64,000 bases of DNA from Candidatus Parcubacteria bacterium (GTDB lineage: Bacteria; Patescibacteriota; Patescibacteriia; Patescibacteriales; UBA12465): NCBI GenBank assembly GCA_037076615.1, contig AP029158.1:261470-325469 (forward strand), read 5' to 3'. Both the position numbers and the translations under genes were made by a program. Positions 2,037 to 52,698 of this stretch are shown piece by piece (the stretch's first letter is position 1; the number at the start of each line of letters is the position of its first letter). The notes under the pieces are model-generated. The model made no database searches and had not been told where the DNA came from. It saw only the letters and a program-made list of their open reading frames with translations.

Positions 2037-2894
2037 ATGAAAATTTTGATTATTGGTAGTCGAGGCGCGCTCGGACAGCAGTTAAGTCGGGTTTTATCGG
2101 TGGATCACGAATTGGTGGGGTGGGACTTTCCGGAAGTAACTTTGACTGATCTAAAATCTTTACCGGCAAAATTAGAAATTTTAAAACCGGATTTGATTAT
2201 AAACGCCGCCGCGTATAATATGGTTGATAAATGCGAACAGGATGAAGCGGAAAAAGAATTAGCTTTTACTTTAAACGAATCTTTACCAAAAACTTTAGCG
2301 ACTTTTTGTGCGGCTAATAAAATTGTTTTGATTCACTATTCCACTGATTATGTTTTTAGTGGTGCGGGCGAACAAGAATTGAATGAGGCCGCTCAACCAG
2401 CGCCAATTAATGTTTATGGAGCTAGTAAGGCGGCCGGGGAGCAAGCGGTGGTTAGCACTATTGGTCTCGATTATTACTTAATTCGAACTTCGAAATTGTT
2501 CGGGCCCAAAGGTGATAGTCCTTTTGCTAAAAATTCTTTTTTTGCGACCATGAAAAAATTGATCGAGGAAAAAACAGTTTTAGAAGTGGTTGATGATGAG
2601 CGGAGCTGCTTCACTTATACGCCTGATTTAGCCGCTGCTACGGCCACCCTCATTACTGAAAAATACCCAGTCGGCATTTATCATCTAACTAATCCGCCGG
2701 CGGCGACCTGGTATGAAGGAGTTGTAGCTTTAAAAGAATTAGTGGCTTTAACGGTGGAAGTTTTACCAATCACCGGGGCAAATTTAGAGCGCCCGGCGAA
2801 ACGGCCGGCTGACTCCGCTTTGATTAATACAAAATTTCCCCCCCTGCGAGATTATCGAGAGGCTTTAAAAGAGTATTTAAATAATTTTCTATGA
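2037..2894 (+). CDS. rfbD: dTDP-4-dehydrorhamnose reductase
   Basis: N-terminal Rossmann ILIIGSRGALG, STDYVF, and YGASK (YxxxK catalytic motif). Its stop overlaps the next gene in an ATGA. Confidence 0.85.
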   Translation: MKILIIGSRGALGQQLSRVLSVDHELVGWDFPEVTLTDLKSLPAKLEILKPDLIINAAAYNMVDKCEQDEAEKELAFTLNESLPKTLATFCAANKIVLIHYSTDYVFSGAGEQELNEAAQPAPINVYGASKAAGEQAVVSTIGLDYYLIRTSKLFGPKGDSPFAKNSFFATMKKLIEEKTVLEVVDDERSCFTYTPDLAAATATLITEKYPVGIYHLTNPPAATWYEGVVALKELVALTVEVLPITGANLERPAKRPADSALINTKFPPLRDYREALKEYLNNFL

Positions 2895-3616
2895 AAGGAA
2901 TAATCTTGTCTGGCGGTAGCGGTACTCGTCTTCGCCCTTTAACAAAAATAACTAGTAAGCAATTGCTACCGATTTATGATCGGCCGATGATTTATTACCC
3001 TTTAAACACTTTAATTAAGGCAGGGATTAAAGAAATTTTAATCATTGTTGCTCCCGAGCGCGCCGGCGATTACTTAAATCTTTTAGGTAGCGGTCAGCAA
3101 TGGGGAGTGAAGCTGACTTACGAAATTCAGGACGAGCCCAAAGGTTTAGCGCAAGCCTTTTTAATTGGTGAGAATTTTATTGATGATGATAATGTCGCGC
3201 TCATTTTAGGCGATAATATTTTTGAAGATGATTTGGCGGCCGAAATAAAAAATTTTTCCGGCGGCGCCAAAATATTTGCCAAGTCCGTTCCTGATCCGGA
3301 ACGTTTCGGCGTAGTTAAATTTAATGATCGTCAGGAGGCGGAAAAACTGGTGGAAAAACCAAAAGAATTTTTAAGCTCTTATGCGGTTACTGGTTTATAT
3401 GTCTGCGATTCGCGCGCGGCAGAATTTGCCAAAGAAATAAAGCCGAGCGACCGCGGGGAATTAGAGATTGTTGATGTCTTGAATAAATATTTAGAAAAAA
3501 ATGAATTAACGGTGGCCTCAGTTAGTGGTGAATGGTTAGACGCCGGCACTTTTGATAGCCTGCTTAAAGCGCAAATTTTGGCTAAAGACCATTTAACAAA
3601 AAACATGATTATCTAA
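2891..3616 (+). CDS. Sugar-phosphate nucleotidyltransferase, short glucose-1-phosphate thymidylyltransferase-like form
   Basis: MKGIILSGGSGTRLRPLT signature (GxGTRLxPxT) and a YGVV-like region FGVVKF. At 241 aa it is shorter than classical RmlA. Confidence 0.75.
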   Translation: MKGIILSGGSGTRLRPLTKITSKQLLPIYDRPMIYYPLNTLIKAGIKEILIIVAPERAGDYLNLLGSGQQWGVKLTYEIQDEPKGLAQAFLIGENFIDDDNVALILGDNIFEDDLAAEIKNFSGGAKIFAKSVPDPERFGVVKFNDRQEAEKLVEKPKEFLSSYAVTGLYVCDSRAAEFAKEIKPSDRGELEIVDVLNKYLEKNELTVASVSGEWLDAGTFDSLLKAQILAKDHLTKNMII

Positions 3617-3618
3617 TT

Positions 3619-4590
3619 ATGAAACTAGCGGTGGGTTTTATCACTTTTAATAGCGCGACGGCCATTTATTTGCCCTATTTTTTAGATAGCTTATTTAAAG
3701 CGTTGACCGCTTGGCCTGAAGAAAGTTTAAAGATTTTGGCAATTGATAATAGCGACGAGGAGGATAACCATAACCAAGATTATGTGGCTGAGTTTATCAA
3801 TCGCACCCAGGCGCTAATTGATTTTGAGTGGTCCGGAGTAAATCTTGGTTTTTCTAAAAGTTATAATCGGATGATTAGTAAGGCTGCCGACTGGGGGGCT
3901 GATTATTTTTTAATGATTAATCCTGATACCGTGATTGACCCCGAAGCTATTAATTTATTAGTGGCTGCTTTAGAAGTTAATCAGGGCTGGGGGTCAGTCG
4001 CTCCGAAAATTAAACGCTGGGATTTTGAAAAATTACAACTCACTAATTATCTTGACAGCTGTGGTCTGAAAATGGGCACCGGTTTACACTTTTTTGATTT
4101 AGGTCAAGGTGAATTAGATGAAAAACAATATGATCGGGCCGAAATTTTGGGCCCCTCGGGGGCGGCGGCCTTATTTAGAATGACAGCGTTAACCGCCGTT
4201 AAAGAAGCGACCGGTTATTTAGATGAGCGCTTTTTTATGTATAAAGAAGACTGTGATTTAGCTTATCGCTTAAATAAGGCTGGCTGTCCCTGCCATCTTG
4301 TGCCCGCGGCTCTTGTTTATCATGACCGAACAGTGGCGACTCCCGGCCGGGGTTTTAAAGACCGCCTAGCTTCACGCCGCGCGCGCAGCCGGAAGGTGCG
4401 CTCTTGGTCTTTTATAAATCAGCATTTATTATTTTTTAAACATTGGTCATATCAAGAAGCAAAAGACAAACTAATTATCATCTCCAAGCTTTTAAAAATG
4501 GCTATTTGGGTTCTTATTTTTGAACCTTTTTTACTTAAAGATTACAAGAAAATTAATGAATTGCGCCGAGTGCCAACCAACTTCCACTAA
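3619..4590 (+). CDS. Glycosyltransferase family 2 (rhamnosyltransferase-like)
   Basis: N-terminal GT-A fold (VGFITFN, AIDNSD). MINPDT is a DxD-equivalent and YKEDCDLAYR is an ED motif. It is coupled to the rfb genes. Confidence 0.8.
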   Translation: MKLAVGFITFNSATAIYLPYFLDSLFKALTAWPEESLKILAIDNSDEEDNHNQDYVAEFINRTQALIDFEWSGVNLGFSKSYNRMISKAADWGADYFLMINPDTVIDPEAINLLVAALEVNQGWGSVAPKIKRWDFEKLQLTNYLDSCGLKMGTGLHFFDLGQGELDEKQYDRAEILGPSGAAALFRMTALTAVKEATGYLDERFFMYKEDCDLAYRLNKAGCPCHLVPAALVYHDRTVATPGRGFKDRLASRRARSRKVRSWSFINQHLLFFKHWSYQEAKDKLIIISKLLKMAIWVLIFEPFLLKDYKKINELRRVPTNFH

Positions 4591-4742: not shown

Positions 4743-5795
4743 ATGGAAAATATTCTCGAAAAAATCGTTAAAGAACAAAAACAAGAAGAACTGGAAAAAC
4801 TGAATGCGATCAAAATCGTGGACAGTTTGTTTGACGAATTACCGGAGCGAGAATCTGATGTTTTGTCACGGCGCTATGGTTTGCGTGGTGGTCGCGGTGA
4901 GACTTTGGAAAAAATTGGACAAACACATAATTTAACCCGCGAGCGGGTTAGGCAAATCGAATCAGCGAGCGTGAAAAAAATTAAAAAACTGGAAAAGATT
5001 GATTCCTGTTTAAGCTCTTTTAAAGAAGCGGTTTCGGAATTAATTAAACGTCATGGAGGCCTACTTAATCGTGAATACTTATTAGATATTCTAACGGTTT
5101 ATGCTTTAGAATTGGGCGGCGAAAATTGCCGGGAACTTGATTCGGAGATGAAAGAAGTTTATCGCAATCATGCGGACTTTTTGATTTCTAAGCTCTTGGA
5201 AGATGAGATTGAAATTGTTAAAAAATCCGATCGTTTTGTCGTCTCTTATAAATTAAAATCCGCAGAAACCAGAGCTTTAGAGGAGTTGGCTGATGATTTA
5301 TTAAGTAAAGTTTCTCATTTAAGCGAGACAATGCCGACGGCCGACTTATTAGAATTAATTAAGAGTTTGGACGCTTACAATCGTTATCAAGGTGAAATCC
5401 GCCGTGAAGAAGATTTAGACGTGACGCCAATCTTTAAGAGTAAAATTTTCCCCGACCAGGGTGAGCTGATTAATTCCAATAAAGTTTTGTATGGCTTGTT
5501 GCGTGCGGTCCGCGGCGTGGCCCGAAATAATTTCGGTTATTGGGGCTCAACCGCTTCGCATGAAATCCGACCCAAGACGGTCAATGATAAAATCTATTTA
5601 ATTTTAAAGAATGCCGGACACCCCTTACATTTTACCGAAATCGCTCAAAAAATTAATGAAGTGAAGTTTGATAAAAAAACCGCTAACCCCGCGACCGTGC
5701 ACAATGAATTAATTTTAGATAGTCGTTACGTTCTAACGGGTCGAGGTCGCTATGGTTTAAAGGAGTGGCAAGAAGTTCCGGTTGAGAAAATATAA
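4743..5795 (+). CDS. Sigma-70 region-4-only protein with a C-terminal HARE-HTH-like winged helix
   Basis: LPERESDVLSRRYGL...ETLEKIGQTHNLTRERVRQIESASVKKIKKL matches the sigma-70 region 4.2 HTH. Only about 30 aa precede it, so there is no region 2 or 3. The C-terminus KIYLILKNAGHPLHFTEIAQKI...GRGRYGLKEW resembles the HARE-HTH of RNAP delta. Confidence 0.6.
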   Translation: MENILEKIVKEQKQEELEKLNAIKIVDSLFDELPERESDVLSRRYGLRGGRGETLEKIGQTHNLTRERVRQIESASVKKIKKLEKIDSCLSSFKEAVSELIKRHGGLLNREYLLDILTVYALELGGENCRELDSEMKEVYRNHADFLISKLLEDEIEIVKKSDRFVVSYKLKSAETRALEELADDLLSKVSHLSETMPTADLLELIKSLDAYNRYQGEIRREEDLDVTPIFKSKIFPDQGELINSNKVLYGLLRAVRGVARNNFGYWGSTASHEIRPKTVNDKIYLILKNAGHPLHFTEIAQKINEVKFDKKTANPATVHNELILDSRYVLTGRGRYGLKEWQEVPVEKI

Positions 5796-5824
5796 AACAA
5801 AATTTAGCTTAAAAATAAAAGTGA

Positions 5825-5855
5825 AAACGCCTCTGGTAGGCGTTTTTATTTTTGG
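5825..5855 (+). terminator. Rho-independent terminator
   Basis: Stem aaacgcct/aggcgttt with a 5-nt loop, followed by TTTTTATTTTT. Confidence 0.6.
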
Positions 5856-5877
5856 GGAGATATGGTAAAATAGGGCT

Positions 5878-7413
5878 ATGAATATTGAGATTGACACCTC
5901 ACGTTTGGATTATTTTTTTGCGGCCGATTTTGGTGAAATGATGTGGCTTTTTTTTGCCAACGTTGGTTGGATTATTTTGGCGATCTTTTTTCTTTTAGGG
6001 GTTCGGGAAATTTATCTTTTTTATATTCAAACTAAATTTGCCAAAGGTTTGAAGTATGTCTTATTGGCGGTTGATGTTCCTCGAGGTAATGCCCAATCGC
6101 CGAAGGCCGTGGAAAATCTTTTTACTTATTTAGGCGGAGCTCATGGCTCGGTAAGTTTTTATGAAAAATGGTTTGAGGGGCGCTTTCAGCAAGCGTTTAG
6201 TTTTGAAATTATCGGTATTGATGGCTACACGCAATTTGCTATTCGCACTCCCGTCGAGCAACGCTTTCTTTTAGAATCGGCAATTTATTCACAGTATCCC
6301 GATGCGGAAATAAGTGAGATTGATGATTATACTCCGAATGTTCCTAATCGTTTTCCTGATGACGAGTGGGATCTCTGGGGTGGCGAATTTATTTTAAGCG
6401 CTCCTGACGCTTATCCGATTAAGCTTTATTCGGAATTTGAGTCCATGCAAGGGGAACCGGAAGAGCGCTTTAAAGACCCAATGGCTAGTTTAATGGATTT
6501 AACTAGCTCTTTAAATAAGGGCGAACAACTGTGGTTGCAATTTATTGTGATTCCCACAGATTTTGCTTGGGTGAAGCGTTCCGATGCCGAGGTTGATAAA
6601 ATTTTAGGGAAGACACCTAAGACTAAACAAGGGCTATTTATGAGTTTCTTGATTTGGTTAGGTGAGCTTAGTGAACAAGTTTTTGCTATTTGGAAGGATA
6701 TTAAACCGAAAGAAGAAAAAAAGGCACTTTCCATGATGGAACTAACGCCTAAGAAAATAAAACAAATTGAAGGTGTTCAGAATAAAGCTTCAAAACTCGG
6801 GTTTGGTTTTAAGATGCGGGTGATTTGTATTGGTCGCAAAGGTATTTTTAATAAGGGGAAAATGGTTTCCGGTCTGGTTGGTTGGGTCAAGCAATTTACG
6901 GCCTTGGATTTAAATGGCTTTAAACCGGATATGAAAGTAACGGCGACTAAAACGGCTTATTTTAGAAAAGATGCGCGTCTCGTAACCAAGAAGAACATTA
7001 TCATGCAAAATTATGTTAACCGATCTCTTGCTGGGCGCCCGCCGTCAATTTTGAATATTGAAGAGCTGGCGACGCTCTGGCATTTTCCTTTAGATGCAGT
7101 CGTTAAGGCGCCGTTAATCCAAAAGGCGCCGGGACGAAAATCCGATGCTCCGGCCGCACTGCCGCTCGCCGATGATATCTCTAACACTCAAGCGCCACCA
7201 CCAGATATTTTTAGTGGTCTAACCAAGAAGAAAGAGCAGCCGACTTCAGAAAAAACAGTTGCTGAAAATAATAGTGCTGTGGTTGGAGATGATCGTTTTT
7301 GGTTGGAACCGAGCGGTCCGGCTCAGAATAATTTTTATCAACACGCTCCAAAAACAGCGGTCGAAAAATTGAGCGATACGGCTGAGCCACCGGCCGATTT
7401 ACCTTTTGTTTAA
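5878..7413 (+). CDS. Hypothetical two-TM membrane protein with a large soluble domain
   Basis: 511-aa ORF with N-terminal hydrophobic helices (MMWLFFANVGWIILAIFFLLGV). No Walker A is visible. It has an ELATLWHFP motif and a Pro/Ala-rich tail, and it is first in a tightly packed operon. Confidence 0.7.
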   Translation: MNIEIDTSRLDYFFAADFGEMMWLFFANVGWIILAIFFLLGVREIYLFYIQTKFAKGLKYVLLAVDVPRGNAQSPKAVENLFTYLGGAHGSVSFYEKWFEGRFQQAFSFEIIGIDGYTQFAIRTPVEQRFLLESAIYSQYPDAEISEIDDYTPNVPNRFPDDEWDLWGGEFILSAPDAYPIKLYSEFESMQGEPEERFKDPMASLMDLTSSLNKGEQLWLQFIVIPTDFAWVKRSDAEVDKILGKTPKTKQGLFMSFLIWLGELSEQVFAIWKDIKPKEEKKALSMMELTPKKIKQIEGVQNKASKLGFGFKMRVICIGRKGIFNKGKMVSGLVGWVKQFTALDLNGFKPDMKVTATKTAYFRKDARLVTKKNIIMQNYVNRSLAGRPPSILNIEELATLWHFPLDAVVKAPLIQKAPGRKSDAPAALPLADDISNTQAPPPDIFSGLTKKKEQPTSEKTVAENNSAVVGDDRFWLEPSGPAQNNFYQHAPKTAVEKLSDTAEPPADLPFV

Positions 7414-7417
7414 ATGT

Positions 7418-8617
7418 ATGAAAAGAAAATCTACTCCCCGGCGCACTATCGGCGTCGATGCTCGTTTTTATGGCCCTCTAGGAAAAGGGCTGGGGCGCTA
7501 CACTCAAGAAGTGGTTGATAACGTCATTAGAATTAATCAAGACGAACCGCTAGATTTCGTAATTTTTTTATCACCGGATAATTTTGATGAATTTGTTTGC
7601 CCCAATGAAAATGTGCGCAAAGAATTAATTAAGGCACGTTGGTATTCTTTGGCGGAACAATTTGAGGTGCCTTATAAATGGTGGCGGGCGAAAATTGACC
7701 TGATGCATTTTCCGCATTTTAATGTCCCTTTAATTAAAATGGGGGCATTTGTGGTTACTATCCATGATCTTATTTTGACGAAGTTTCCGACGGTGCGAGC
7801 TACCACCAGGCCCCCTTTTATTTATTGGCTAAAGGATAAGGCTTATCGTTTGGTCATTAGATTAGCGATTAAAAAAGCTAAACAGGTGATTACGGTTTCT
7901 GAATTTACGAAAAAAGATTTAATAGCTCAATTTAAAACGCCGCTGGAAAAAATTATTGTCACCTATGAGGGGGTGGCGAATTTAAGCAAGGGCGGAGATT
8001 CTCTTTTTGTGGCCAAGCTTGATCACCAGCGCACCTTGGAACTTTATAATATTCGCAGCCCTTACTTGTTATATGTTGGTAATGCTTATCCACATAAAAA
8101 TTTAGAAGGTTTAATTAGAGTTTTTGCTGAACTGCGAAAGGGGTATCCGGATTTACGTTTAGTGTTAGTGGGGAAAGAAGATTTTTTCTATGAGCGGGTG
8201 CGTCTTTACGCCCAGCAATTAAATTTATGGCAAAAAGAGAATCATAATACTCCGGTCGTTTTTCCTGGCTATGTCCCCGATGTTGATTTGGAGACCTTGT
8301 TCCAAGAAGCCACTCTCTATGTTTTTCCTTCTCTTTATGAAGGCTTCGGTCTGCCGCCACTTGAAGCGATGGTTTATGGCTGTCCAGTGGCGAGCTCTAA
8401 TTGTGCTAGTATGCCGGAAATATTAGGAGCGGCTGCGGTTTATTTTAACCCTGAGAATGAGAAAGAAATGCGAATGGTGGTTGGTGATCTTTTAAAAAAT
8501 AGAGATGCCAGGGAAGAGTTAAAAGTTTTAGGAAAACAGCAGGTGAAAAAATATAATTGGTGGGAATGTGCTTGTCTAACCTCTGAAATCTACAAACGCT
8601 TACTAATTAAAGGTTAA
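7418..8617 (+). CDS. Glycosyltransferase family 4 (GT-B, GT1 clan)
   Basis: FPSLYEGFGLPPLEAM signature (the E-x7-E region). I moved the start from the TTG at 7406 to the in-frame ATG at 7418, just after the upstream stop. Confidence 0.85.
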   Translation: MKRKSTPRRTIGVDARFYGPLGKGLGRYTQEVVDNVIRINQDEPLDFVIFLSPDNFDEFVCPNENVRKELIKARWYSLAEQFEVPYKWWRAKIDLMHFPHFNVPLIKMGAFVVTIHDLILTKFPTVRATTRPPFIYWLKDKAYRLVIRLAIKKAKQVITVSEFTKKDLIAQFKTPLEKIIVTYEGVANLSKGGDSLFVAKLDHQRTLELYNIRSPYLLYVGNAYPHKNLEGLIRVFAELRKGYPDLRLVLVGKEDFFYERVRLYAQQLNLWQKENHNTPVVFPGYVPDVDLETLFQEATLYVFPSLYEGFGLPPLEAMVYGCPVASSNCASMPEILGAAAVYFNPENEKEMRMVVGDLLKNRDAREELKVLGKQQVKKYNWWECACLTSEIYKRLLIKG

Positions 8618-11056
8618 ATGTTCAAGAGCAGAAAAGCAAAAAAATCTTTATTAACGGGGAAGTATCAGGCCGCCCCGGATTTTTTGCGCGGCCTTGATGA
8701 TGCGCTGCTTAAGGGCACTAAAAGAGATAAAGCCGAGCGACCACGACAGACACGACGGCAATTGGAAAGACAAGCGCGGCGTGATTTAAAATTGTTAGCC
8801 AAAAATGTAAAAACTGCTCAGCGGGAGGTGAAAAAAATAGACCGCGAGTCGTTGCCCAAGAAGTGGACTTTAAGTTATTTTGGCCGTCGCTGGCGAGAGC
8901 GGCAAACTCAGCTTCGCTTGAAATTTTATGAAAAAAAACTTGATGCTCAGCTTCGGAGTGGCGAAAAAAAATTATCTTCCTGGCGCCGAAAAAATTTTAA
9001 AAAACCTTCAAGTTCTCGCCGCCCTTGGTTTTGGCGCATCATTATTTTTGCCGGAGTCCTTTTTTTAGTGACCATTCCTTTCCAAATTTTGGTGCAATTT
9101 AGTGACCGGGATGACTATTCTTTTAAAGACTATCTCTTAAACATCACCAAAAACGCTTGGGGTAATTTAACCAGTGGTGGCGAAGCCCTAACTAATCAAG
9201 ATTGGAATCGAGCCGAAAAAAGTTTTAACCAGGCGGGCGACCAATTTTATCAAGCGGCGGCTGGTTTAAAAATTATTAACGATCGACTCTTATCTTTAGC
9301 GGCTTACACCAGTAATCCGGAATTAAAATTAGTGGCGGAAAGTAAAAAATTATTAAAGATTGGCGCTCTAGGTTCGGAATTAGCGGCGGAGATCACGGCC
9401 GCCCTTAACGGCTGGGATCGCGCCAATGGTGATTGGTTGGTACTACTAACTCAACTTGAGAAACGTGCGGCAACCGCTCAATCTTTAGCCAATAATCTCG
9501 TTTCTGAATTAGAAACAGTAAAGGTGGAAAATTTGCCCGTGGCCTATCAAGCGGATTTTGAAGAAATTGTTGACCAGGCTAAAGCTCTGCCAACGGCTTT
9601 AAGTTTGATTACCGACAATGCCGGTCGCTTTAAAAAATTATTAGGCAGTGGTCAGGATAAGCGGTATTTATTAGTTTTTCAGAATAATAATGAAATTAGA
9701 GGTTCGGGCGGATTTTTAGGAAGTTATGCCTTAATTGATTTTCGTGATGGGCAGATAACCAACTTAGAAGTCCCTGGTGGGGGTTCTTACGATACCGAAG
9801 CGGGGCTTAAATTAAATATTATTGCGCCCGAGCCCTTGTGGTTGGTTAATCCGAAGTGGCATTTTTGGGACGCTAACTGGTGGCCAGATTGGCCAACAAC
9901 AGCGCGCAACCTCAGCTGGTTTTTAGAAAAAAGTGCGGGCCCGACGGTTGATGGCGTGATTTCTTTTACTCCGAGTGTGATTGAAGAATTATTAAAGATT
10001 ACCGGACCGGTTGATTTAAGCGCCGAGTATGGGGTGATAATAACCGCCGAAAACTTTTGGCAAGAAGTACAGTTAACCGCCGAGCGCGATAATTTGGTGG
10101 ACACTAATCCTGATTTAGTCGCGCACTTGCCGATAGGGGAAGAAAATAAACCGAAAAAAATTATTGGTACTTTAGCCGAAGAAATCTTAGAGATCTTACC
10201 GGCAAAAATGAATCAAGATAATTTTCTTAAACTCGCTTCTTTAGCCGAAGAAAGTTTGGCCGCCAAGCAAGTGCTCCTTTATTTTTCTGATCCCGATTTG
10301 CAGGCGATGGTTTCTCAGTGGGGTTGGAGCGGGGAAGTGGCAGCGGCGCCTTACGATTATTTAATGGTGGTTAACACTAATATTGCGGGCGCTAAAACCG
10401 ATCGAATGATTAAAGAAACAATTAGTCAGGAGGTAAACATCAAAGAGGATGGCCGCGTGGTTGTTAATTTAAAAATAAAACGAGAGCACACCGCGCCGCC
10501 GCACACGCCTTTGGTGGGGGTGCGGAATGTTAATTGGCTTCGCGTTTATGTGCCCCACGGCGCTAAACTGCTACAAGCCGGAGGCTTTAGCGCTCCAGAC
10601 GCCGAGTATTTTTCTTATCCGGAGGCCGGCTGGCAAAAGAATGAATTGCTCGCCACTACCGAAGGGCAGTCTTTAGTTGAACCGGTTAGCGGCACTAAAG
10701 TTTATTCGGAGTCCGGTAAGACGGTCTTTGCTAATTGGAGCATGATTGATCCGGGGGAGACAGCTGAGTTGTGGTTCGAATACGAACTACCGCAGCCCGT
10801 GCCCGAATTAAAAGTTGCCGATAATTTATTTCAACGCCTAAATCATTGGCTTAATCCCGAAAAAATAAGTCGCTCCAATTATTCTTTATTGGTGCAAAAA
10901 CAACCGGGAGCGGTTAATGATAACTATCAGCTCCAAGTTAATTGGCCGGATAATTATCATTTAAGTTGGCAAGGTCCGGGCTTAATTGGTGGTCAAGCGC
11001 CGCTGACCCCCTTAACTCGGGATCGCTTTTTTTCTTTAGCTTTTAGTAATTATTAA
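8618..11056 (+). CDS. DUF4012-like membrane-anchored protein
   Basis: A basic N-terminus of about 140 aa, then one TM (WRIIIFAGVLFLVTIPF). DKRYLLVFQNNNEIRGSGGFLGSYALIDF is the core I recall for DUF4012. The ATG directly abuts the upstream stop. Confidence 0.8.
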   Translation: MFKSRKAKKSLLTGKYQAAPDFLRGLDDALLKGTKRDKAERPRQTRRQLERQARRDLKLLAKNVKTAQREVKKIDRESLPKKWTLSYFGRRWRERQTQLRLKFYEKKLDAQLRSGEKKLSSWRRKNFKKPSSSRRPWFWRIIIFAGVLFLVTIPFQILVQFSDRDDYSFKDYLLNITKNAWGNLTSGGEALTNQDWNRAEKSFNQAGDQFYQAAAGLKIINDRLLSLAAYTSNPELKLVAESKKLLKIGALGSELAAEITAALNGWDRANGDWLVLLTQLEKRAATAQSLANNLVSELETVKVENLPVAYQADFEEIVDQAKALPTALSLITDNAGRFKKLLGSGQDKRYLLVFQNNNEIRGSGGFLGSYALIDFRDGQITNLEVPGGGSYDTEAGLKLNIIAPEPLWLVNPKWHFWDANWWPDWPTTARNLSWFLEKSAGPTVDGVISFTPSVIEELLKITGPVDLSAEYGVIITAENFWQEVQLTAERDNLVDTNPDLVAHLPIGEENKPKKIIGTLAEEILEILPAKMNQDNFLKLASLAEESLAAKQVLLYFSDPDLQAMVSQWGWSGEVAAAPYDYLMVVNTNIAGAKTDRMIKETISQEVNIKEDGRVVVNLKIKREHTAPPHTPLVGVRNVNWLRVYVPHGAKLLQAGGFSAPDAEYFSYPEAGWQKNELLATTEGQSLVEPVSGTKVYSESGKTVFANWSMIDPGETAELWFEYELPQPVPELKVADNLFQRLNHWLNPEKISRSNYSLLVQKQPGAVNDNYQLQVNWPDNYHLSWQGPGLIGGQAPLTPLTRDRFFSLAFSNY

Positions 11057-11059
11057 TAT

Positions 11060-13108
11060 ATGTCTATTAAAAAAAATATTCCGGTCACGGCCGGTCCGGC
11101 ACAAAATAATCCCGCGCCCAAAGATTCTAATCCGGGAAGGGTAAAAAAATCCGAGCCTAAGTTTCGGCCGAGATCCGCGCCGCAGCCAACACGGCGTCCT
11201 GTTTTTAGTGCTCATCCGGTGCCCACTAAGGAGCAGGTCAAAAAATTTGAACAGGCCGTTCGCCGCGAGGCCCGCCAAGAAGAAATTGAGGATAATCTCT
11301 CGGAAATTTATCGTGATAAAAAGGGTGAATTGGTTGATGTTTCCGAATTTAAGGCGCGTAAAAAACCAATTTTAATTTTGTTGCTAAAAAATATCTTTGT
11401 CTTAGCGGTTATTGCTTCGCTGGCTTACGCCGCCTTCACTTATTTTTTCAGCCCCAACGCTAATGAGGCGAGAGTTAGTCTAGAGATCACCGCTCCGGAT
11501 AAAGTTAAGGCTGGCGAACCGTTTAACTATTCGATCGTTTACGAAAACCGGAGTGAGTTCTTTTTAAAAAATTTACGTCTTGAACTTAAATATCCAGAAA
11601 GATTCATTCGCGAGGAGGTTAGCGGAGAGCTAACACCGCTGGGCAGTGCCGGTAATTATTTTGAATTACCGGATTTACCGATTGGTGGTCGGGCGGAAAT
11701 AAAAATTTCCGGCCGATTGATTGGTAAACAAGATTCTACGAATATTTTAACCGCCGGTTTAAGTTTCGCACCGCAAGATTTTTCTAGTCAATTTAAAGAG
11801 GAGGCCGTTTCGGCAATTACGATCAGTAGTCTCGGTTTTGATTTAGGCTTCGAGTATAGCAATGCCGTCTTAGTTGGTCAGGAAAATGAAATAGAGCTTA
11901 ACTTTAGTCGTCCTAATGACACCTTCTTAGAAAATTTTGATTTATCTTTTTCCTTCCCGGAAAATATTTCTTTAGTGAACGCCACCACGACCGCTACTAA
12001 TACTCCCATAACTGTTGATAAAAGTAATTTAGTTTGGCGAATAGAAAATTTTGCCACGGCGACCGATGATTATCGTTTGCCAGTTCGCTATAAAGTTAAC
12101 CGCAAAGTTTCTGATAGCCAGGATTTAATTATTCGCCTTAGTCAAAAAGATGAAAAGGGGCAAGAATATGTCTTTTTAGAAAAAGTTATCAACCTGTCAA
12201 TAATGACCAGTAACTTGAATTTAACTTTAAGTGTTAACGGTAATAAAACTGAGGGGGCGGCTAGTTTCGGTGAGACGCTTAAATATTCTTTAAGTTATGT
12301 TAATAAAAGTGATAATGATTTACAGGATATAGTTTTGATGGCAGTTTTAGATGGTGATTGGCTCGACTGGAAATCAATTAAGGAAACTGATGGCGGAAAA
12401 ATAAAAAATAATACGATTATTTGGGCTAAGGAGGAATTGCCCGCTTTGGCGACTTTAGAGCCGGGCGCTAGCGGGGAGCTGAACTTTGAGATTGCTATTC
12501 AAGATTATACCCCCGATAAGTTGGGCGATAAGACAACCATTGCCAGCTATGCTTACTTTACTTTAGGCAGCCAAAGCACCGGCCTTAATGATAGTAAGAG
12601 TAATACGGTGACGACTAAAATAAATAGTGATTTCCAATTTACCGAGCAGGTCTTATATTTTGATGAAAATAATATGCCTGTCGGTAGTGGCCCTTTGCCG
12701 CCGGTAGTTGGTCAAGAAACGGGCGTGCGCGTTTATTGGAACTTGGAAAATAACCTCAATGAATTAAAAGGAGCTCGAGTGGTGGCTGTTTTGCCGGAGT
12801 ATGTTAATTTTGCCGGTGCTCGCAATACTTCTTGGGGGAGCCTTAGTTTTGATCCCGGCACTAGATTTGTTAACTGGGAGCTCGGTGATTTGCCGCTGAG
12901 TACTTATCAAGCGCAAGCCCAATTTGATTTAACCTTGACGCCGACTGAAGATCAGCGCAATACTCTGTTGGTTATTTTGCCGGGGAGCACGGCCCAAGCT
13001 TTAGATGCGGAAACGGGAATTATGCTGACCGCCTCGACTCCAGCAAAAACAACAAAACTAGAAGATGATAGTATCGCTGCTTTAAGTAATTCCGGCTTGG
13101 TTCAATAA
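11060..13108 (+). CDS. Membrane-anchored surface protein with repeated Ig-like (DUF11/CARDB-like) modules
   Basis: Basic N-terminus and a single TM (ILILLLKNIFVLAVIASLAYAAF). It has repeated beta-rich segments such as LEITAPDKVKAGEPFNYSIVYEN and GETLKYSLSYVN. It starts 3 nt after the upstream gene. Confidence 0.7.
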   Translation: MSIKKNIPVTAGPAQNNPAPKDSNPGRVKKSEPKFRPRSAPQPTRRPVFSAHPVPTKEQVKKFEQAVRREARQEEIEDNLSEIYRDKKGELVDVSEFKARKKPILILLLKNIFVLAVIASLAYAAFTYFFSPNANEARVSLEITAPDKVKAGEPFNYSIVYENRSEFFLKNLRLELKYPERFIREEVSGELTPLGSAGNYFELPDLPIGGRAEIKISGRLIGKQDSTNILTAGLSFAPQDFSSQFKEEAVSAITISSLGFDLGFEYSNAVLVGQENEIELNFSRPNDTFLENFDLSFSFPENISLVNATTTATNTPITVDKSNLVWRIENFATATDDYRLPVRYKVNRKVSDSQDLIIRLSQKDEKGQEYVFLEKVINLSIMTSNLNLTLSVNGNKTEGAASFGETLKYSLSYVNKSDNDLQDIVLMAVLDGDWLDWKSIKETDGGKIKNNTIIWAKEELPALATLEPGASGELNFEIAIQDYTPDKLGDKTTIASYAYFTLGSQSTGLNDSKSNTVTTKINSDFQFTEQVLYFDENNMPVGSGPLPPVVGQETGVRVYWNLENNLNELKGARVVAVLPEYVNFAGARNTSWGSLSFDPGTRFVNWELGDLPLSTYQAQAQFDLTLTPTEDQRNTLLVILPGSTAQALDAETGIMLTASTPAKTTKLEDDSIAALSNSGLVQ

Positions 13109-13119
13109 AGTTAATTTTT

Positions 13120-14271
13120 ATGATTGTTTGGAAAAATAAAAATGGCTATCGTCAAGGAAAAATAAAAACGCCCCACGGATTACTCACCACGCCATTTTTT
13201 ATGCCGGATGCGACGAGAGGTGTAGTTAAGCATTTAACAACCAATGATCTCAAGCAAGTGGGAACAAGTGCTTTGGTGGTTAATACTTTCCATCTTTATC
13301 TGCGGCCGGGGATAAAAACAATTGAAAAAGCCGGCGGCTTACATCAATTTATGAGTTATCCGGGCCCCTTATTATCAGATAGTGGCGGCTTTCAGGTGTT
13401 TTCTTTGATTCACCGACGGCCGGGCCACGGCGACATTAATGATCAGCGAGCCCGGTTTAAATCGCCGTTAGATGGCAGTTTTCACGAGCTCACCCCGGAA
13501 AAATCTATCCAAATCCAATTCTCTTTGGGGGTTGATTTCATGATTTGTTTAGATGATTGTCCGCCGAATGAATTTTCGCGACCGGATTTAGAGGCGGCAG
13601 TGGCGCGAACAATTGCTTGGGCGCGTCGAGCTAAAGCGGAATATAATCGGCAAGTTAAAAAAAGAGGTTTAAGTGAAGTAGCGCGACCGCGCTTATTGGC
13701 GGTTATCCAAGGAGGGGTGGATATCGATTTGCGCCAAGCTTGTGCCGCCGCTTTGGTGGAAATCGGTTTTGATGGTTATGGTTTTGGGGCGCGCCCGGTT
13801 GATAAAGAGGGTAATTTTTTAGCGGGTGTGATGGCAGCGACGGCGGCGGCGATTCCCGAAACTAGTTTACGCTTTGCGCTCGGAGTTGGTTTACCAGAAG
13901 ATATTTATCGTGCTTACCTGATGGGCTGGGATATGTTTGACTGCGTGATTCCTACTAGAGAAGGACGGCATGGGAAGTTATTTTCTTTTAAGCCCCGCTT
14001 TAAGGAATTTAAGAAGCCAGCTTCGCGTTCGAAAATAGTGGCGACGGCGCCGGATTTTTACCAAACGACTAATATTTTGCGAGCCGAGTACGCTCATGAT
14101 CAGCGACCAATTAATCCTCAGAGCAATTTTCCTGAGCTAAGAACTTACAGCCGCGCTTACTTACATCATCTTTTTAAGAGCGGAGAACCCTTGGGTCAAC
14201 GTTTGGCTAGTTTAAATAATTTAGAATTTTTTAATGAATTGTTGAATAAACTTAAAGATTTAGCCGATTAA
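13120..14271 (+). CDS. tgt: tRNA-guanine transglycosylase family protein (divergent, no Zn-cysteine motif)
   Basis: TPFFMPDAT, LSDSGGFQV, ICLDDC and DMFDCVIPTREGRHG match TGT catalytic regions. The C-terminal region lacks CxCxxC. Confidence 0.8.
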   Translation: MIVWKNKNGYRQGKIKTPHGLLTTPFFMPDATRGVVKHLTTNDLKQVGTSALVVNTFHLYLRPGIKTIEKAGGLHQFMSYPGPLLSDSGGFQVFSLIHRRPGHGDINDQRARFKSPLDGSFHELTPEKSIQIQFSLGVDFMICLDDCPPNEFSRPDLEAAVARTIAWARRAKAEYNRQVKKRGLSEVARPRLLAVIQGGVDIDLRQACAAALVEIGFDGYGFGARPVDKEGNFLAGVMAATAAAIPETSLRFALGVGLPEDIYRAYLMGWDMFDCVIPTREGRHGKLFSFKPRFKEFKKPASRSKIVATAPDFYQTTNILRAEYAHDQRPINPQSNFPELRTYSRAYLHHLFKSGEPLGQRLASLNNLEFFNELLNKLKDLAD

Positions 14272-19411: not shown

Positions 19412-20347
19412 ATGTCTAAGCAAAACAAAGGTTATCTAAGGGTGGCGATAGTCATGATTATTATTGTCGGGGCGGGCAGCTATTTTTTGTCAGGCTCTTC
19501 TGTTTTTAAAAATTATACTTGTGAAAAACGGGGCGGTGGGCTGGTGGGACCTGATAAGCAAGAATGTTTTCCGAAAGATGTAAAATTGGCAGCCGCTAAA
19601 AATTTAAAAGGCAACACGATCACTATTCCTAATAAAAATGAAGAAATAGTGAAACTAGATTTTAAAGATGATAATTATGTTAGCGGCGATTTAAAAAACA
19701 CCACTGGCAAAATTGGTCAAGTGCTTATTGATACTAACCGAGTAGAAGCTTTTTTAAATGGTGATTCGTTTTTGAGCCCGATCCAGGTTAATTATCAAAA
19801 TGCAGACAACGCTCTTTATCTTGGTGCTTTTCAATTTGAGGGCGGTGATATTAGTAAAATAAATTTTCTGGGCGGGTATCTCGTTGTTGCTGGTGATAAA
19901 TATTTAGTGGATAAAATATCCGCAGAGCTAGGCCCTTATTTTCATGTTATCAGCGTTGTTTACCATCAAGAAAATGATTCTAATAACCAAAGAACAGCTG
20001 TTATTCATTTAAACACGGAGGATGCTAAGTTTTATGCCGGTAAAAATTGTTCAGAAATTGTCAATACTGAAACTAGGGTTAGGGGCGATAATAAGGAATA
20101 TGAGGTGTGTGTTTGGGGTAGTGGCAAGGAATGCGCCGTTTCTGCCTATAAGCAAGGAGCTTGCCCCTTAGATGGCATTGAGGTGGCGAATTTAAGTGAA
20201 GTTGATAAATATCTTAAGATTCATGGAATTTTACTGCCCGATGGTCGGTTTGTAACTGATCCGGAGCGATCAGACTGTGATCAAGAAAAAATATATAACG
20301 GCCTTTGTCCAACGATTCCATTTCTCGGTCAAGCAATTGGTTACTAA
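19412..20347 (+). CDS. Hypothetical membrane-anchored or secreted Cys-containing protein (weak DUF333-like Cys pattern)
   Basis: N-terminal TM (VAIVMIIIVGAGSYFL). The segments TCEKRGGGLVGPDKQECFP and YEVCVWGSGKECAVSAYKQGACP resemble the C..GG...C.fpdG.eC..w....C pattern of DUF333. This is recalled from memory only. Confidence 0.55.
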   Translation: MSKQNKGYLRVAIVMIIIVGAGSYFLSGSSVFKNYTCEKRGGGLVGPDKQECFPKDVKLAAAKNLKGNTITIPNKNEEIVKLDFKDDNYVSGDLKNTTGKIGQVLIDTNRVEAFLNGDSFLSPIQVNYQNADNALYLGAFQFEGGDISKINFLGGYLVVAGDKYLVDKISAELGPYFHVISVVYHQENDSNNQRTAVIHLNTEDAKFYAGKNCSEIVNTETRVRGDNKEYEVCVWGSGKECAVSAYKQGACPLDGIEVANLSEVDKYLKIHGILLPDGRFVTDPERSDCDQEKIYNGLCPTIPFLGQAIGY

Positions 20348-21060: not shown

Positions 21061-22557
21061 ATGACTTTTTGGCGGCGCCGAAGCCTAATAGTCGGACTCT
21101 TATTTTTAAGTGGTGTCTTATTTTTCTTCTCGCCCACTCAAGCGCAAACGTTACCAGAGCGCTTAACGGGCCGTATTTTACTTCAAGTAGAAAGCCATGG
21201 TGAAGCCTGGTATGTTAATCCGACTAATTTAAAACGTTATTATTTAGGGCGCCCTAGTGACGCCTTAGTTTTAATGAGACAACTCAGCCTTGGCATTTCC
21301 GAGGCCGAGTTTGCGACTTGGAATCAAGGCGCGCCGGCTTGGGCCAAGGGGCGCTTGTTTTTGCGACCCGAGAGTCACGGTGAAGCTTATTATGTCGACT
21401 TAAATCAACGTTGGCATTATTTAGGTCGCCCTGATGACGCTTGGCAGCTGCTACGTCAGCAAGGTTTGGGAATTACAAATATTGATCTAAACAAAATCCC
21501 GGCGGCAACTAGCGCTCCTCTTAGCGCGACAATCGCTCCGCCTTCACCGACCAGTTCGTTAGATTTAGACCATTTAAGCTCTTTAACTTGGAAATATAGG
21601 CAAGAAAATTACGAACAAAATTTTTCTTTATCAAGCCAGTTGAATAAAGATTATGCCGCCAGTCTAAAAGTTTTTTATTACAATGATCAGGCTGATGTTC
21701 AAGCGGTGCGAGAAGGATTTTATGGTTTATTTTTAAAACCTAAAGAGGGTGATACTTTAGTCGGTGATTTAGTGGCCTATGCCCGGCGCACGGGTCGCAG
21801 CCGCGGCTGGAGCAGTGATCAGGTGGCGGAATTTGTTTTGGCGCTAGTGCAGTATATTCCTTATGATCAGAGTAAACTCACGCAATCGCCAATTATTCCT
21901 AATTACCCTTATGAAACCGTCTATAAAAATTCCGGCGTTTGTTCTGATAAGACTTTTTTAGCGGTTAGTCTTTTACGAGAGCTTGGTTATGGAGCAGCAA
22001 TTTTAGATTTTCCGGAAAAGAATCACTCGGCGGTCGGCATTGCTTGCCCTCCAGAGGACTCACTTGCCGGTAGTGGCTATTGCTTTGTTGAAACTACTAA
22101 TTATTTTCCGCCCGGAGTTGTGCCTGGAGCAATTTCTTCCGGACAAGCCGTTGGTGGTTCGGAGATGCCCCTGGCCCTATTTACGGCCGATCATTTAGGT
22201 CGTTTAGAAATTTATCAAAAAACACCAGGATCTTTTTATGAGGGGGTCAGAGTCACTAAAGAAAAGGCAGAATCTTTAAAAAATCTTTATCAGCGCTTAG
22301 CCACCGAAAAACAGTTATTAGATGTGGCTGGGAAGGAGTTGAGTGCCGAGCAAGAGCGTTTAAGCGCTCAGCGCGCCAAACTCGATGCCTATTTAGTCAC
22401 CGGCGATTTAGTGGCCTATAACAAGGAGGTAGATGCTTATAATCAGGCGGTTAATCAATATAACAGTGATTTAGAAGGCTACCGCCAGCAGCAGAGAGAA
22501 TATAATAATTTAGTGACTACTTATAATCAGGGGTTGGCTGATTTTTACCAAAAATAA
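21061..22557 (+). CDS. Secreted protein with a tandem N-terminal repeat, a transglutaminase-like core and a C-terminal coiled coil
   Basis: It has a signal peptide and two repeats of about 47 aa (ESHGEAWYV...YYLGRP.DA). The arrangement SGVCSDKTFLAVSLLRELGY ... NHSAVGI looks like a Cys-His papain/transglutaminase fold. The tail is Y/N/Q-rich and helical. Confidence 0.55.
   Translation: MTFWRRRSLIVGLLFLSGVLFFFSPTQAQTLPERLTGRILLQVESHGEAWYVNPTNLKRYYLGRPSDALVLMRQLSLGISEAEFATWNQGAPAWAKGRLFLRPESHGEAYYVDLNQRWHYLGRPDDAWQLLRQQGLGITNIDLNKIPAATSAPLSATIAPPSPTSSLDLDHLSSLTWKYRQENYEQNFSLSSQLNKDYAASLKVFYYNDQADVQAVREGFYGLFLKPKEGDTLVGDLVAYARRTGRSRGWSSDQVAEFVLALVQYIPYDQSKLTQSPIIPNYPYETVYKNSGVCSDKTFLAVSLLRELGYGAAILDFPEKNHSAVGIACPPEDSLAGSGYCFVETTNYFPPGVVPGAISSGQAVGGSEMPLALFTADHLGRLEIYQKTPGSFYEGVRVTKEKAESLKNLYQRLATEKQLLDVAGKELSAEQERLSAQRAKLDAYLVTGDLVAYNKEVDAYNQAVNQYNSDLEGYRQQQREYNNLVTTYNQGLADFYQK
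21169..21489 (+). repeat. Intragenic tandem duplication (two ~47-aa repeats about 60 aa apart)
   Basis: GRILLQVESHGEAWYVNPTNLKRYYLGRPSDALVLMRQLSLGIS versus GRLFLRPESHGEAYYVDLNQRWHYLGRPDDAWQLLRQQGLGIT. Confidence 0.7.
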
Positions 22558-31900: not shown

Positions 31901-32347
31901 GAAATGCCCTTAAAGGACAGTTCTTTCGCTTTTTGGTGGCGAAATACTTCTTACCCCAATGAAGGTCGCTTCAATCTTAAGTTGCGGGGCGACGATAAAG
32001 ATATTTTTACTTTAATGCCGACAATTTATAACCCCAGTTTTTCTTTTAATGGTAGCGGCGGATTTTTAGGAGAATACGGCAAAGATTATTTTCCGAAGGA
32101 TAAAAATTGGCATCATTTGGCGATTACCTATGATTCCTATCGTTATCGCTGGCGCTTTTTCTTTGATGGTGAGCTATGGAAAGAGCTGCCCGCCATGAAA
32201 TTGAGGCCCGAGGCTGTCTTAGATCAGCTTGTTATTGATACCGAAAATTATCCCTCCGATATTGATGAGCTTAAAATTTGGAGTGGTGTCTTGAATAAAG
32301 AGGCAATTTTAGTGGAATATGAGAGTTATCGTGAGTATTTAAATTAA
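28967..32347 (+). CDS. Giant secreted multidomain protein: permuted papain-like amidase + Pro/Thr/Ala linker + lamin-tail (LTD) + two LamG-like domains
   Basis: It has a signal peptide. SGHTGIYVG (His) precedes EWTCVGLAEKVYE (Cys), the order seen in permuted NlpC/P60 (YiiX-like) enzymes. The PAPT-rich linker spans aa ~325-440. ISKVYSNGTDDWLEIVNASDEDLDL is LTD-like. Two blocks end in IDELSLWLRPLSPAELKEIF and IDELKIWSGVLNKEAIL, typical LamG_3 endings. Confidence 0.75.
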   Translation: MKNLKIKILFFSLSLVWSLSATAAHALPVGTLLFRTSGGGLSYGYNTNILVITENGFPKHFYSGHTGIYVGQEDGVDYVVEMQPQGAIKIPANQFVNTALGEKLISAKIPKNSTAAQRARAAALAKNLARAAVDYDFDFKHQKGPGSAEWTCVGLAEKVYESANTSNPADLTTLVYDSQDYAVDITPDGFDKVSVYNQGGDCFSETKEFSKIARKTELTLPLPEKIGYDFGLEKGGDRFIFFPQTQERQNSLISVPVDIDLDSEFKADPVRGRIPVIKVALKWSLINNPVSTVKQIAYQATNIAQKIKDFISPTDDNLVYLEEEEIESPPSKKVSSVKEPASTAVVKTVPKTSAPAPTKVVPAPAPVTNLPAKTTPIPISKTEAKTEPIKVSAPVPKKETPASKAESDRPATTVLPSTAPAPPPIEYVPIKIATPKGSVTNQLKKLASEEAKTETNKNTVPVNTETEEELVSAPQALISKVYSNGTDDWLEIVNASDEDLDLVVHDYRLVKVKGGSPVLIMDFGNENHGTYPGGTVIAPHSSYLVVRSSAAENVKALADAISTRDNFSWTEDGYTLYLGTGAISSDEDVDIVDRLGYGEALYYSGAPAPALVPGYALERKATASSTVESLSSGGLEELWARLYDSRDNSRDFLLIPYDYELIKANEEKNNPPEADEEDKEETETEVIPPELIDTAEGLFVNPASLESEALTQLWHFDECFGAEHRNALAAVSDYPQELVAADLWGIGKWGCALKLDLENRGLKSDLPPDFDSNNFTIAFYYRKDIHGNFFIDWRLNNRQPETQQFSLNLNEYRSEVHGFPGPNGYFFDMAWPADDNWHQVALVVNQAAGYWGLYLDGEEKYLYENSWIIPEFTDWEIELRPNTPAVLIDELSLWLRPLSPAELKEIFDYNLPFNPYTWPDPQRAPELEHYWRFDENNEEVARDEIGGDDLAVKVSDWNMEGFIDSSLKAVGDFSWNITEMPLKDSSFAFWWRNTSYPNEGRFNLKLRGDDKDIFTLMPTIYNPSFSFNGSGGFLGEYGKDYFPKDKNWHHLAITYDSYRYRWRFFFDGELWKELPAMKLRPEAVLDQLVIDTENYPSDIDELKIWSGVLNKEAILVEYESYREYLN

Positions 32348-32500: not shown

Positions 32501-32856
32501 TGGGGGGCAAGTAGATGATTGCTCGGTTCGCCGAGAGGAAAGTCCGGACTCCTTAAAGGGGCAGTGGATAACGTCCACCAGGGGTAACCCTAGGGAAAGT
32601 GCCACAGAGACAATACTAGTCCGCCCGTTGGCTTCGCCAGCCGGTGGATGAAAGGTGAAAAGAAAGAGGGTGTCGCAAGGCTACCTTTTTCGCTTAGCGG
32701 TGACGCTAAGATCGCGGTAAACCCTGCCTGGAGCAAGGACAAACTCTGTTGCTTTTTAAGTAGCAGAAGAAAAGTGGTCCGCTTGATCGGTTTGGCAACA
32801 AATCGGCTTAGATAAATAATCATCCTAGACAGAATCCGGCTTATCGCTTACCCCCA
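32501..32856 (+). ncRNA. rnpB: RNase P RNA, bacterial type A
   Basis: It carries both conserved P4 strands, GAGAGGAAAGTCCGGACTCC and GACAGAATCCGGCTTAT. The P3 hairpin is CTCGGTTCGCCGAG, and P1 pairs GGGGGGCAAG with CGCTTACCCCC. The ends are approximate, within about 10 nt. Confidence 0.85.
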
Positions 32857-32879
32857 AAATAACTTTTTTAAAACTTTTT

Positions 32880-34301: not shown

Positions 34302-34305
34302 TTTT

Positions 34306-37010: not shown

Positions 37011-37018
37011 TAATATTT

Positions 37019-52611: not shown

Positions 52612-52643
52612 ACAAAAAAAGTATTAAGCAATAAATAATTGCT

Positions 52644-52691: not shown

Positions 52692-52698
52692 CTCTCTG

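Follow-up and report, generated by a model that had tools for sequence, protein, structure and literature searches.

The four genes G1 to G4 at positions 5878-13108 of the window (the whole 64,000-nt stretch of Parcubacteria DNA analysed here), together with the tgt gene behind them, are best explained as two functional units and a passenger. We put the probability of this explanation as a whole at about 0.55. In it, the glycosyltransferase family 4 (GT4) gene G2, the DUF4012 gene G3 and the Ig-like protein gene G4 form a conserved Patescibacteria envelope-glycan module, which on the evidence of sequence and gene neighbourhood probably builds a surface sugar polymer. G1, a DUF8128 protein, is probably the membrane partner of an ATPase resembling type IV coupling proteins (T4CPs) that is not encoded in the window, a view drawn from sequence and a structural model, and a rearrangement particular to this lineage would have brought this ATPase anchor next to the module. 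The tgt gene is a functionally unrelated passenger in the packed unit, with no envelope role. The module is a Patescibacteria-specific form of an already known association between DUF4012 and glycan clusters.

The window is a Patescibacteria segment (Parcubacteria, Falkowbacteria-like) with nearly all of its genes on the + strand, including the entire run from 5878 to 14271. G1 (5878..7413, 511 aa), G2 (7418..8617, 399 aa from its ATG, with an in-frame TTG at 7406 as an alternative start), G3 (8618..11056, 812 aa) and G4 (11060..13108, 682 aa) are succeeded by tgt (13120..14271). The product of the latter, a tRNA-guanine transglycosylase, is recognised by Pfam (TGT, 2.7e-99) and at equivalog level by NCBIfam (TIGR00430, 316 bits against a cut-off of 306.75). 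Proteins identical to G1, G3 and G4 are deposited as BFD24941.1, BFD24943.1 and BFD24944.1, respectively. The initial annotation had described gaps of 4, 0 and 3 nt followed by tgt after 11 nt, and these are borne out by the coordinates of the open reading frames (ORFs). Its family assignments also held in hidden Markov model (HMM) searches, with GT4 and DUF4012 passing their cut-offs and the DUF11 family of G4 passing weakly. NCBIfam profiles returned no family for G1, G3 or G4.

The grouping of GT4, DUF4012 and Ig emerges from metagenomic contigs, which were scanned with the DUF4012 motif Y-x4-Q-N-x2-E-x-R-x2-G-G-x2-G, derived from an alignment with proteins from Lachnospira, Rhodococcus and Streptomyces. 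This yielded 120 loci, 117 of which carry a true DUF4012 ORF. The long DUF4012 subfamily to which G3 belongs was represented by 26 metagenome loci, whose proteins are 28-42% identical to G3 and whose GC content ranges from 0.27 to 0.62. Immediately upstream in this subfamily lies a G2-like GT4 gene in 14/19 cases, the others being UppS, FtsW or reverse transcriptase genes. The downstream neighbour is a G4-like DUF11 Ig protein in 8/16 cases and a MurJ flippase in 6/16. The outer flanks vary (PMT_2, LepA, CysS, FtsW, UppS). An arrangement of GT4-DUF4012-(Ig or MurJ) that persists across such differences in GC content, flanks and sequence identity is not explained by neutral synteny. No G1 homologue was found in any of the 120 sampled DUF4012 loci, at least 6 of which offer over 1 kb of sequence 5′ of the GT4 gene.

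The distribution of G1 is different. An alignment of G1 was used to scan GTDB species genomes; at least 581 species carry the gene and the best 80 loci were kept, 69 of them from a Falkowbacteria-like clade (clade A) and 11 from outside it. The GT4 gene directly follows G1 in 68/69 clade-A loci (in the other one, the contig stops just behind G1). The full order G1-GT4-DUF4012-Ig was seen in 62 of the 80 loci, and tgt comes next in 61. The co-occurrence beyond this genome that the four-gene proposal had called for is thus real, but it is confined to clade A. Moreover, the conserved clade-A block reaches beyond the four genes, running GT2-sigma4/HARE-G1-GT4-DUF4012-Ig-tgt, where GT2 is a glycosyltransferase family 2 gene and sigma4/HARE encodes a protein with sigma-70 region 4 and a HARE-HTH domain. 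Most members extend it further, with PBP-Mur ligase-rmlD-rmlA upstream and pyruvate kinase-enolase downstream. Co-occurrence restricted to one clade with synteny of this length cannot separate function from inherited gene order.

Outside clade A, G1 keeps other company. A soluble ATPase of approximately 590 aa lies directly 3′ of G1 in 10/11 non-clade-A loci (L070, L074, L076, L077 and L079-L084; e.g. L079:2870-6267), and no GT4, DUF4012 or Ig gene lies within 10 kb of G1 in these 10. When loci were instead anchored on the ATPase, DUF8128 was found directly 5′ of it in 3/3, each with different surroundings (L208:6422-9755, L209:6216-10103, L210:6463-9836). One genome departs from both arrangements, with a 694-aa CARDB/Kre9-Ig/TSP3-repeat protein (L075:7653-9737) between sigma4/HARE and DUF8128, and neither the ATPase nor GT4-DUF4012 next. 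The partnership of G1 with the ATPase is separate from, and stronger than, its link to GT4-DUF4012.

The ATPase has Pfam matches to TrwB_AAD_bind, T4SS-DNA_transf, TraG-D_C, DUF87 and a treble-clef zinc finger, the last being a C-terminal CxxC-x17-CxxC. It contains no hydrophobic or membrane segment. The family is very large, with 66-77% identity among the matches listed, and its members are named in their sources as 'type IV secretion system DNA-binding domain-containing protein' or 'CxxC-x17-CxxC'. When the ATPase profile was aligned with single pGO1 sequences using hhalign, the probability was 72% for TrsE and 18% for a VirD4-like protein, which is too weak to separate VirB4-type from VirD4-type; the VirD4-type call therefore relies on the Pfam matches. 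Behind G1-ATPase, 8/13 loci of the other clade encode a polytopic DUF1361 protein and a membrane-embedded, synthase-like GT2 of approximately 520 aa, which has 2 hydrophobic segments at its N-terminal end and 3 at its C-terminal end (L079:6328-8649, L209:10126-12426, L210:10147-12545). Glycan-type genes thus trail G1 in both arrangements, and G1 operons have repeatedly carried envelope-glycan genes. No tblastn match to the ATPase, DUF1361 or the membrane GT2 was found within the 64-kb window. A comparison of L079 (sigma4/HARE-G1-ATPase-DUF1361-GT2-tgt) with the window (sigma4/HARE-G1-GT4-DUF4012-Ig-tgt) suggests, as the simplest history, a replacement of the gene set that separates G1 from tgt.

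G1 itself received no family from the Pfam-A copy searched, which seems to lack the PF26449 model. However, PF26449 (DUF8128) is precomputed on all of its top 120 homologues, one of them 95% identical, and on called genes in the related loci; the family comprises 1,681 representatives at 50% identity. G1 had been described as having two N-terminal transmembrane helices, which is incorrect. There is a single hydrophobic segment (aa 24-42), forming one long helix in an AlphaFold2 (AF2) model, and the charge of -4 before and +3 after it (positive-inside) indicates that the large domain is probably cytoplasmic and not part of the envelope. The segment is followed by an alpha/beta domain at aa ~60-400 and a disordered tail of ~100 residues. 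No Walker A motif could be read in the sequence. Foldseek searches with the model (pLDDT 72, pTM 0.66) returned TrwK/VirB4 of R388 as all of the best nine PDB matches (E 6e-5, probability 1.0, TM-score ~0.3). At the C-terminus of G1 (window 7300-7413) a PPxNLPF[VAG] motif is kept with or without an adjacent ATPase, and looks like a short docking motif. Moreover, G1 has ~130 invariant positions in clade A, although no ATPase adjoins it there.

G3 matches PF13196 (DUF4012) at aa 346-485 with 93.6 bits (cut-off 28). Its tail (aa 1-136) is strongly basic, with a net charge of +31, and leads into a transmembrane segment (aa 141-159) and a large C-terminal domain. The AF2 model (pLDDT 78) comprises a helical bundle, an alpha/beta core and a beta-sandwich C-terminus. 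The core carries the universal motifs Y..Q-N..E-x-R..GG..G and VDG, and residues Y350, Q355, E359, R361, G364, G365, G368 and V444-D445-G446 are invariant relative to the Lachnospira, Rhodococcus and Streptomyces proteins. Taken with a flexible Gly-rich loop, the invariant E359, R361, D392, D445 and K593 suggest, from sequence and model, an enzyme for a phosphate-bearing substrate. We know of no DUF4012 member with an assigned biochemical function. A Foldseek search with the G3 model gave partial, generic beta-sandwich matches (ribophorin-1 and the N-domain of M1 aminopeptidase, TM-score ≤0.15), which were not used for functional assignment.

The setting of G3 is one of glycan genes. GT4 is adjacent, and upstream at 2037..4590 (+) lie rmlD-like, nucleotidyl-transferase (rmlA-like) and GT2 genes identified by Pfam, the GT2 at 3619-4590; a glycan setting was likewise found in the 117 sampled loci. 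GT2s resembling that of the window also occur in 7 unrelated metagenome loci (L096, L106, L125, L135, L146, L155, L168). These loci carry another DUF4012 subfamily, and in each of them two such GT2 genes come immediately before it. These pairs suggest that GT2 and DUF4012 belonged to one ancestral cluster, interrupted in the window by sigma4/HARE-G1. Other DUF4012 subfamilies adjoin Wzz, tyrosine-kinase ATPases, priming sugar transferases and nucleotide-sugar enzymes. In other phyla the neighbours of DUF4012 include a priming sugar transferase, Wzz, a tyrosine kinase, an O-antigen-ligase-like protein, GT4/GT2 and rfbABC, with rfbA/B/C close by in annotated Rhodococcus plasmid records. The exopolysaccharide (EPS) cluster of Bifidobacterium longum also contains a DUF4012 gene among its glycan genes (PMC5412050), and the enrichment of DUF4012 in the candidate phyla radiation (CPR) is already known (PMC6744442).

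G2 is a member of its family by the matches obtained. PF00534 (Glycos_transf_1; 1.7e-29, 103 bits, cut-off 26.4) and PF13439 (Glyco_transf_4; 1.8e-9, 38.3 bits, cut-off 28.5) recognise both GT-B halves, and an intact EX7E motif (EGFGLPPLE) can be read in the translated C-terminal domain. G2 has no hydrophobic segment and is thus predicted to be soluble and cytoplasmic. Among solved structures, those of GT4 enzymes, MshA-like ones included, are closest to it. No orthologue could be assigned among NCBIfam profiles, all 27 matches falling far below cut-off (the best, MSMEG_0565, with 95 bits against 260). A defence role for G2, raised by a match to the 'conflict-system' family PF20706, was rejected; the match is far weaker than those to generic GT4 and is present in all ordinary GT4 neighbours.

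G4 had been called an Ig-repeat surface protein, and this holds in part. DUF11 passes on the whole protein (2.7e-8, 34.6 bits, cut-off 24.6), but no single stretch passes alone and a second DUF11-like repeat, at aa ~146, is weak (family HMM, i-Evalue 0.004). A match to DUF7619 was also obtained (4.8e-4), and a repeated domain start, 'G-x-x-[FL]-x-Y-x-[IL]-x-Y-x-N', occurs at aa ~146 and ~397. DUF11 domains are characteristically found in proteins of the surface-layer type. The N-terminal tail of G4 has a net charge of +8 over 100 aa and carries a conserved motif (E..L..IY.D..G...DV); it is followed by one transmembrane segment at aa ~104-130 and a large C-terminal domain. The shared architecture proposed for G3 and G4, with basic tails (136 and 100 aa), one transmembrane segment and a large C-terminal domain, was therefore seen correctly. 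The best-conserved part of G4 (aa 520-682) matched no family, and PDB searches with G4 also gave nothing usable.

The start of the run is well delimited. The sigma4/HARE gene (4743..5795, +; Pfam Sigma70_r4 2.8e-14, HARE-HTH 6.8e-8) is ended by an intrinsic-terminator-like hairpin and T-run (5824..5853, +), the hairpin at 5824-5846 having the stem AAAACGCC / GGCGTTTT and being listed by a hairpin scanner as well. Compensatory changes in the stem are seen across 10 relatives with 52-93% G1 protein identity. The extended -10 element TGGTAAAAT was read in the sequence at 5863..5871 (+). In the same 10 aligned relatives TATGnTAAAAT is invariant upstream of G1, and TGnTA[AT]AAT occurs no more than 130 nt upstream of G1 in 70/79 loci (60/68 in clade A and 10/11 elsewhere) against a chance expectation of 0.03. 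Both the terminator and the extended -10 noted in the initial annotation are therefore present and conserved in relatives. The last base of TGGTAAAAT lies 7 nt before the ATG of G1, so that the G1 mRNA probably has little or no leader; the distance widens to 20-45 nt in remoter relatives. The sigma4/HARE gene is found upstream of G1 in 73/80 loci and in both gene arrangements, with a gap that is never below 57 nt (median 115 nt). Since it is never close, G1 appears to head its own transcription unit. The sigma4/HARE protein combines sigma-70 region 4 with a C-terminal HARE-HTH resembling the delta subunit of RNA polymerase, and its gene always has a terminator of its own.

On these grounds G1-GT4-DUF4012-Ig-tgt is read as one transcription unit expressed from its own extended -10 promoter, a part of the explanation favoured above and one predicted from sequence. 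Median gaps in 61-68 clade-A loci are 6.5, 2, 14 and 7 nt (the last, Ig-to-tgt, from 61 loci). However, the tight packing of the four genes is not distinctive, because half of the same-strand junctions in the window are equally tight (spacing of 12 nt or less at 17/34, median 12.5 nt, in its first 45 kb). No Shine-Dalgarno sequence precedes any of seven gene starts inspected, those from G1 to tgt included. This fits translational coupling, and fits genome-wide initiation independent of such sequences too. The coupling that had been claimed is therefore plausible as far as the letters go: the short gaps are conserved in 61-68 loci, but packing of this kind is typical of the genome.

Taken together, these data allow a mechanism to be proposed. 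The soluble GT4 would work on the cytoplasmic side of the membrane, extending an undecaprenyl-phosphate-linked intermediate by a sugar, and a MurJ/Wzx-type flippase of the MOP family would transfer the product across. The extracytoplasmic core of the DUF4012 protein would then process or attach the glycan at the cell surface, where the membrane-anchored Ig-repeat protein G4 could serve as scaffold or acceptor. More speculatively, recruitment of the soluble GT4 might fall to the long basic tails of G3 and G4. The upstream rmlD, rmlA and GT2 genes would probably feed the same glycan pathway. G1, for its part, would be a single-pass protein whose cytoplasmic, VirB4-like non-ATPase domain partners a soluble VirD4/TrwB-type ATPase, and in clade A the ATPase-DUF1361-GT2 genes after G1 would have been swapped for GT4-DUF4012-Ig.

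Several observations weigh against this explanation. DUF4012 has no characterised homologue, nor a solved one in PDB searches, and the glycan steps proposed above are inferred, the lipid-linked substrate from neighbouring genes only. The likeness of G1 to VirB4 comes from one AF2 model of medium confidence with a TM-score of ~0.3, in which the aligned half of VirB4 was not visible. PDB sequence and profile searches with G1 found no VirB4 and nothing usable, and the G1 profile aligned with TrsD of pGO1 at an hhalign probability of 0.1. No fusion of G1 with the ATPase occurs among the 150 best family representatives (lengths 279-691 aa). Moreover, G1 is tightly joined to GT4 in 58/68 clade-A loci, and since glycan-type genes also trail G1-ATPase, a functional link of G1 to envelope-glycan genes is possible.

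This last point leads to the dedicated four-gene envelope module of the initial annotation, in which all four proteins would form one system for assembling or decorating a surface structure in clade A, with G1 as its organiser at the cytoplasmic membrane or its energy-coupling adaptor. The order shared by 62/80 species genomes under one conserved promoter would be expected of such a system, as would the median G1-to-GT4 gap of 6.5 nt, with some genes overlapping. The invariant positions of G1 in clade A, kept with no adjacent ATPase, also fit, and the DUF1361 and membrane GT2 genes behind G1-ATPase in 8/13 loci suggest that G1 has repeatedly been co-transcribed with glycan genes. However, the adjacency is that of a single clade with extended synteny reaching to tgt, tight gaps are the norm of the genome, and the large domain of G1 probably lies in the cytoplasm. 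Elsewhere the conserved partner of G1 is the ATPase, and G1 was found in 0/120 independently sampled DUF4012 loci. We therefore regard a single four-gene system as unlikely: GT4, DUF4012 and Ig do recur together in distant loci, but G1 is absent there and was probably misassigned to the module. A bolder form of the idea, in which DUF8128 and the zinc-finger ATPase are a Patescibacteria-wide membrane motor taken from type IV secretion and wired repeatedly to glycan genes, to GT4-DUF4012-Ig in clade A and to DUF1361 with a membrane GT2 in its sister clade, so that the four genes would make one ATP-driven surface-glycoconjugate system with its ATPase elsewhere in the genome, seems to us similarly improbable.

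Two further alternatives concern the module itself. It may serve protein glycosylation, with G4 as an S-layer-like substrate, GT4 building a lipid-linked oligosaccharide and DUF4012 acting as an extracytoplasmic transferase or chaperone. In the subfamily DUF4012 is most often followed by a DUF11 Ig protein (8/16), the general association of DUF11 with surface-layer-type proteins is suggestive, and in one locus a PMT_2 (GT-C) gene stands beside GT4. The Foldseek matches of G3, weak as they are, are led by ribophorin-1, a subunit of oligosaccharyltransferase. That match is a generic beta-sandwich with a TM-score of 0.15, however, and MurJ takes the place of the Ig gene after DUF4012 in 6/16 loci, whilst outside the subfamily DUF4012 is found in ordinary polysaccharide clusters that have no Ig protein. 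Glycosylation of G4 is accordingly a doubtful reading. It is very unlikely that there is no functional module whatsoever, just genome compaction and inherited synteny of unrelated housekeeping and envelope genes. Junctions of 12 nt or less at half of those in the window would suit this, as would the presence of tgt, pyruvate kinase and enolase within the conserved block, but compaction does not account for GT4-DUF4012-(Ig/MurJ) being kept at 28-42% identity across different GC contents and flanks.

Other parts of a glycan pathway are scattered through the window. Within 5878-13108 there is no priming transferase, flippase, polymerase or chain-length regulator. A second glycan locus at 32880-38074 begins with a priming transferase (Bac_transf and CoA_binding_3, 32880-34301), continues with two GT4s to 36592 and contains further ORFs. 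It directly follows the RNase P RNA (32503-32859), and one of its GT4s is G2-like (HMM score 183). A third locus (52639-57337) encodes a Wzx-like flippase (Polysacc_synt, 52639-54129), a GT4, a 245-aa ORF and a 487-aa protein. The latter (55874-57337) has ~14 hydrophobic segments and no Pfam match, and could be a Wzy/ligase-like or GT-C enzyme. Neither a MurJ match nor a Wzz was found within the 64-kb window. Further ORFs of the window were also noted. A large putative surface protein of 1,126 aa at 28967-32347 combines one hydrophobic segment at its N-terminus with a Lamin-tail domain and ends in a Laminin_G_3 domain (ConA-like lectin). Sizeable ORFs of 539, 498 and 311 aa (43804-45423, 21061-22557 and 19412-20347, respectively) have one hydrophobic segment each and no Pfam family.

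With fixed partners (GT4 upstream, Ig or MurJ downstream), DUF4012 would gain a testable place in lipid-linked glycan assembly, and the glycan surface in question is the one that epibionts use for host contact. The pair of DUF8128 and its ATPase, rather than the operon of the window, is the lead most worth following. In Patescibacteria 5,713 VirD4-type T4CP homologues were counted in a survey of 2025, of which just 148 lie near virB4, and its authors raised exaptation (PMC12102498). DUF8128 is a candidate partner for these thousands of T4CP-like ATPases far from virB4, and the pair may account for such 'orphan' homologues. It appears to be undescribed, DUF8128 and PF26449 being mentioned in no paper that we found.

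Comparison with known systems places G1 closest to monoderm type IV secretion systems (VirB4/TrsD). TrwK/VirB4 are the best structural matches of its model, a secretion-type ATPase adjoins it elsewhere, and pGO1 has the same split layout, with TrsD directly 5′ of the VirB4 ATPase. However, G1 has no sequence similarity to TrsD, no other type IV secretion gene lies in its vicinity and the window does not encode the ATPase. Moreover, in contrast to VirB4 systems, the partner of G1 is a VirD4-type ATPase with a zinc finger, a type usually far from virB4 in Patescibacteria (PMC12102498). G4 resembles DUF11/CARDB-type surface proteins in its DUF11 and DUF7619 matches and its repeated domain start, but is anchored by an N-terminal transmembrane segment with a 100-aa cytoplasmic tail instead of a signal peptide and C-terminal sorting signal.

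The module shares the logic of Wzx/Wzy and wall-glycopolymer pathways, with a cytoplasmic glycosyltransferase and, in 6/16 loci, a MOP-family flippase beside DUF4012; the conserved Arg and acidic residues of the DUF4012 ectodomain and the occasional UppS or FtsW neighbours would fit these too. It differs from a Wzx/Wzy locus in that the candidates for priming transferase, flippase and polymerase lie 20-45 kb away in the window and not in the module. No relationship of DUF4012 to LCP, Wzy or WaaL could be detected, and any functional analogy to them is inferred. The closest counterparts of G3 are the DUF4012 proteins of Gram-positive capsule and exopolysaccharide clusters (BL105A_0406 of Bifidobacterium longum 105-A, and Rhodococcus and Streptomyces plasmid clusters). 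These belong to the same family, have the same motifs and the same N-terminal transmembrane segment with an outside domain, and their genes are always among glycosyltransferase and glycan-export genes (PMC5412050 and plasmid records). Relative to them, the subfamily of the window is approximately 200 aa longer, owing to the 136-aa basic cytoplasmic tail and C-terminal insertions. Its genes do not adjoin a priming transferase, Wzz or tyrosine kinase, and are partnered instead by GT4 upstream and by a DUF11 Ig protein or MurJ downstream.

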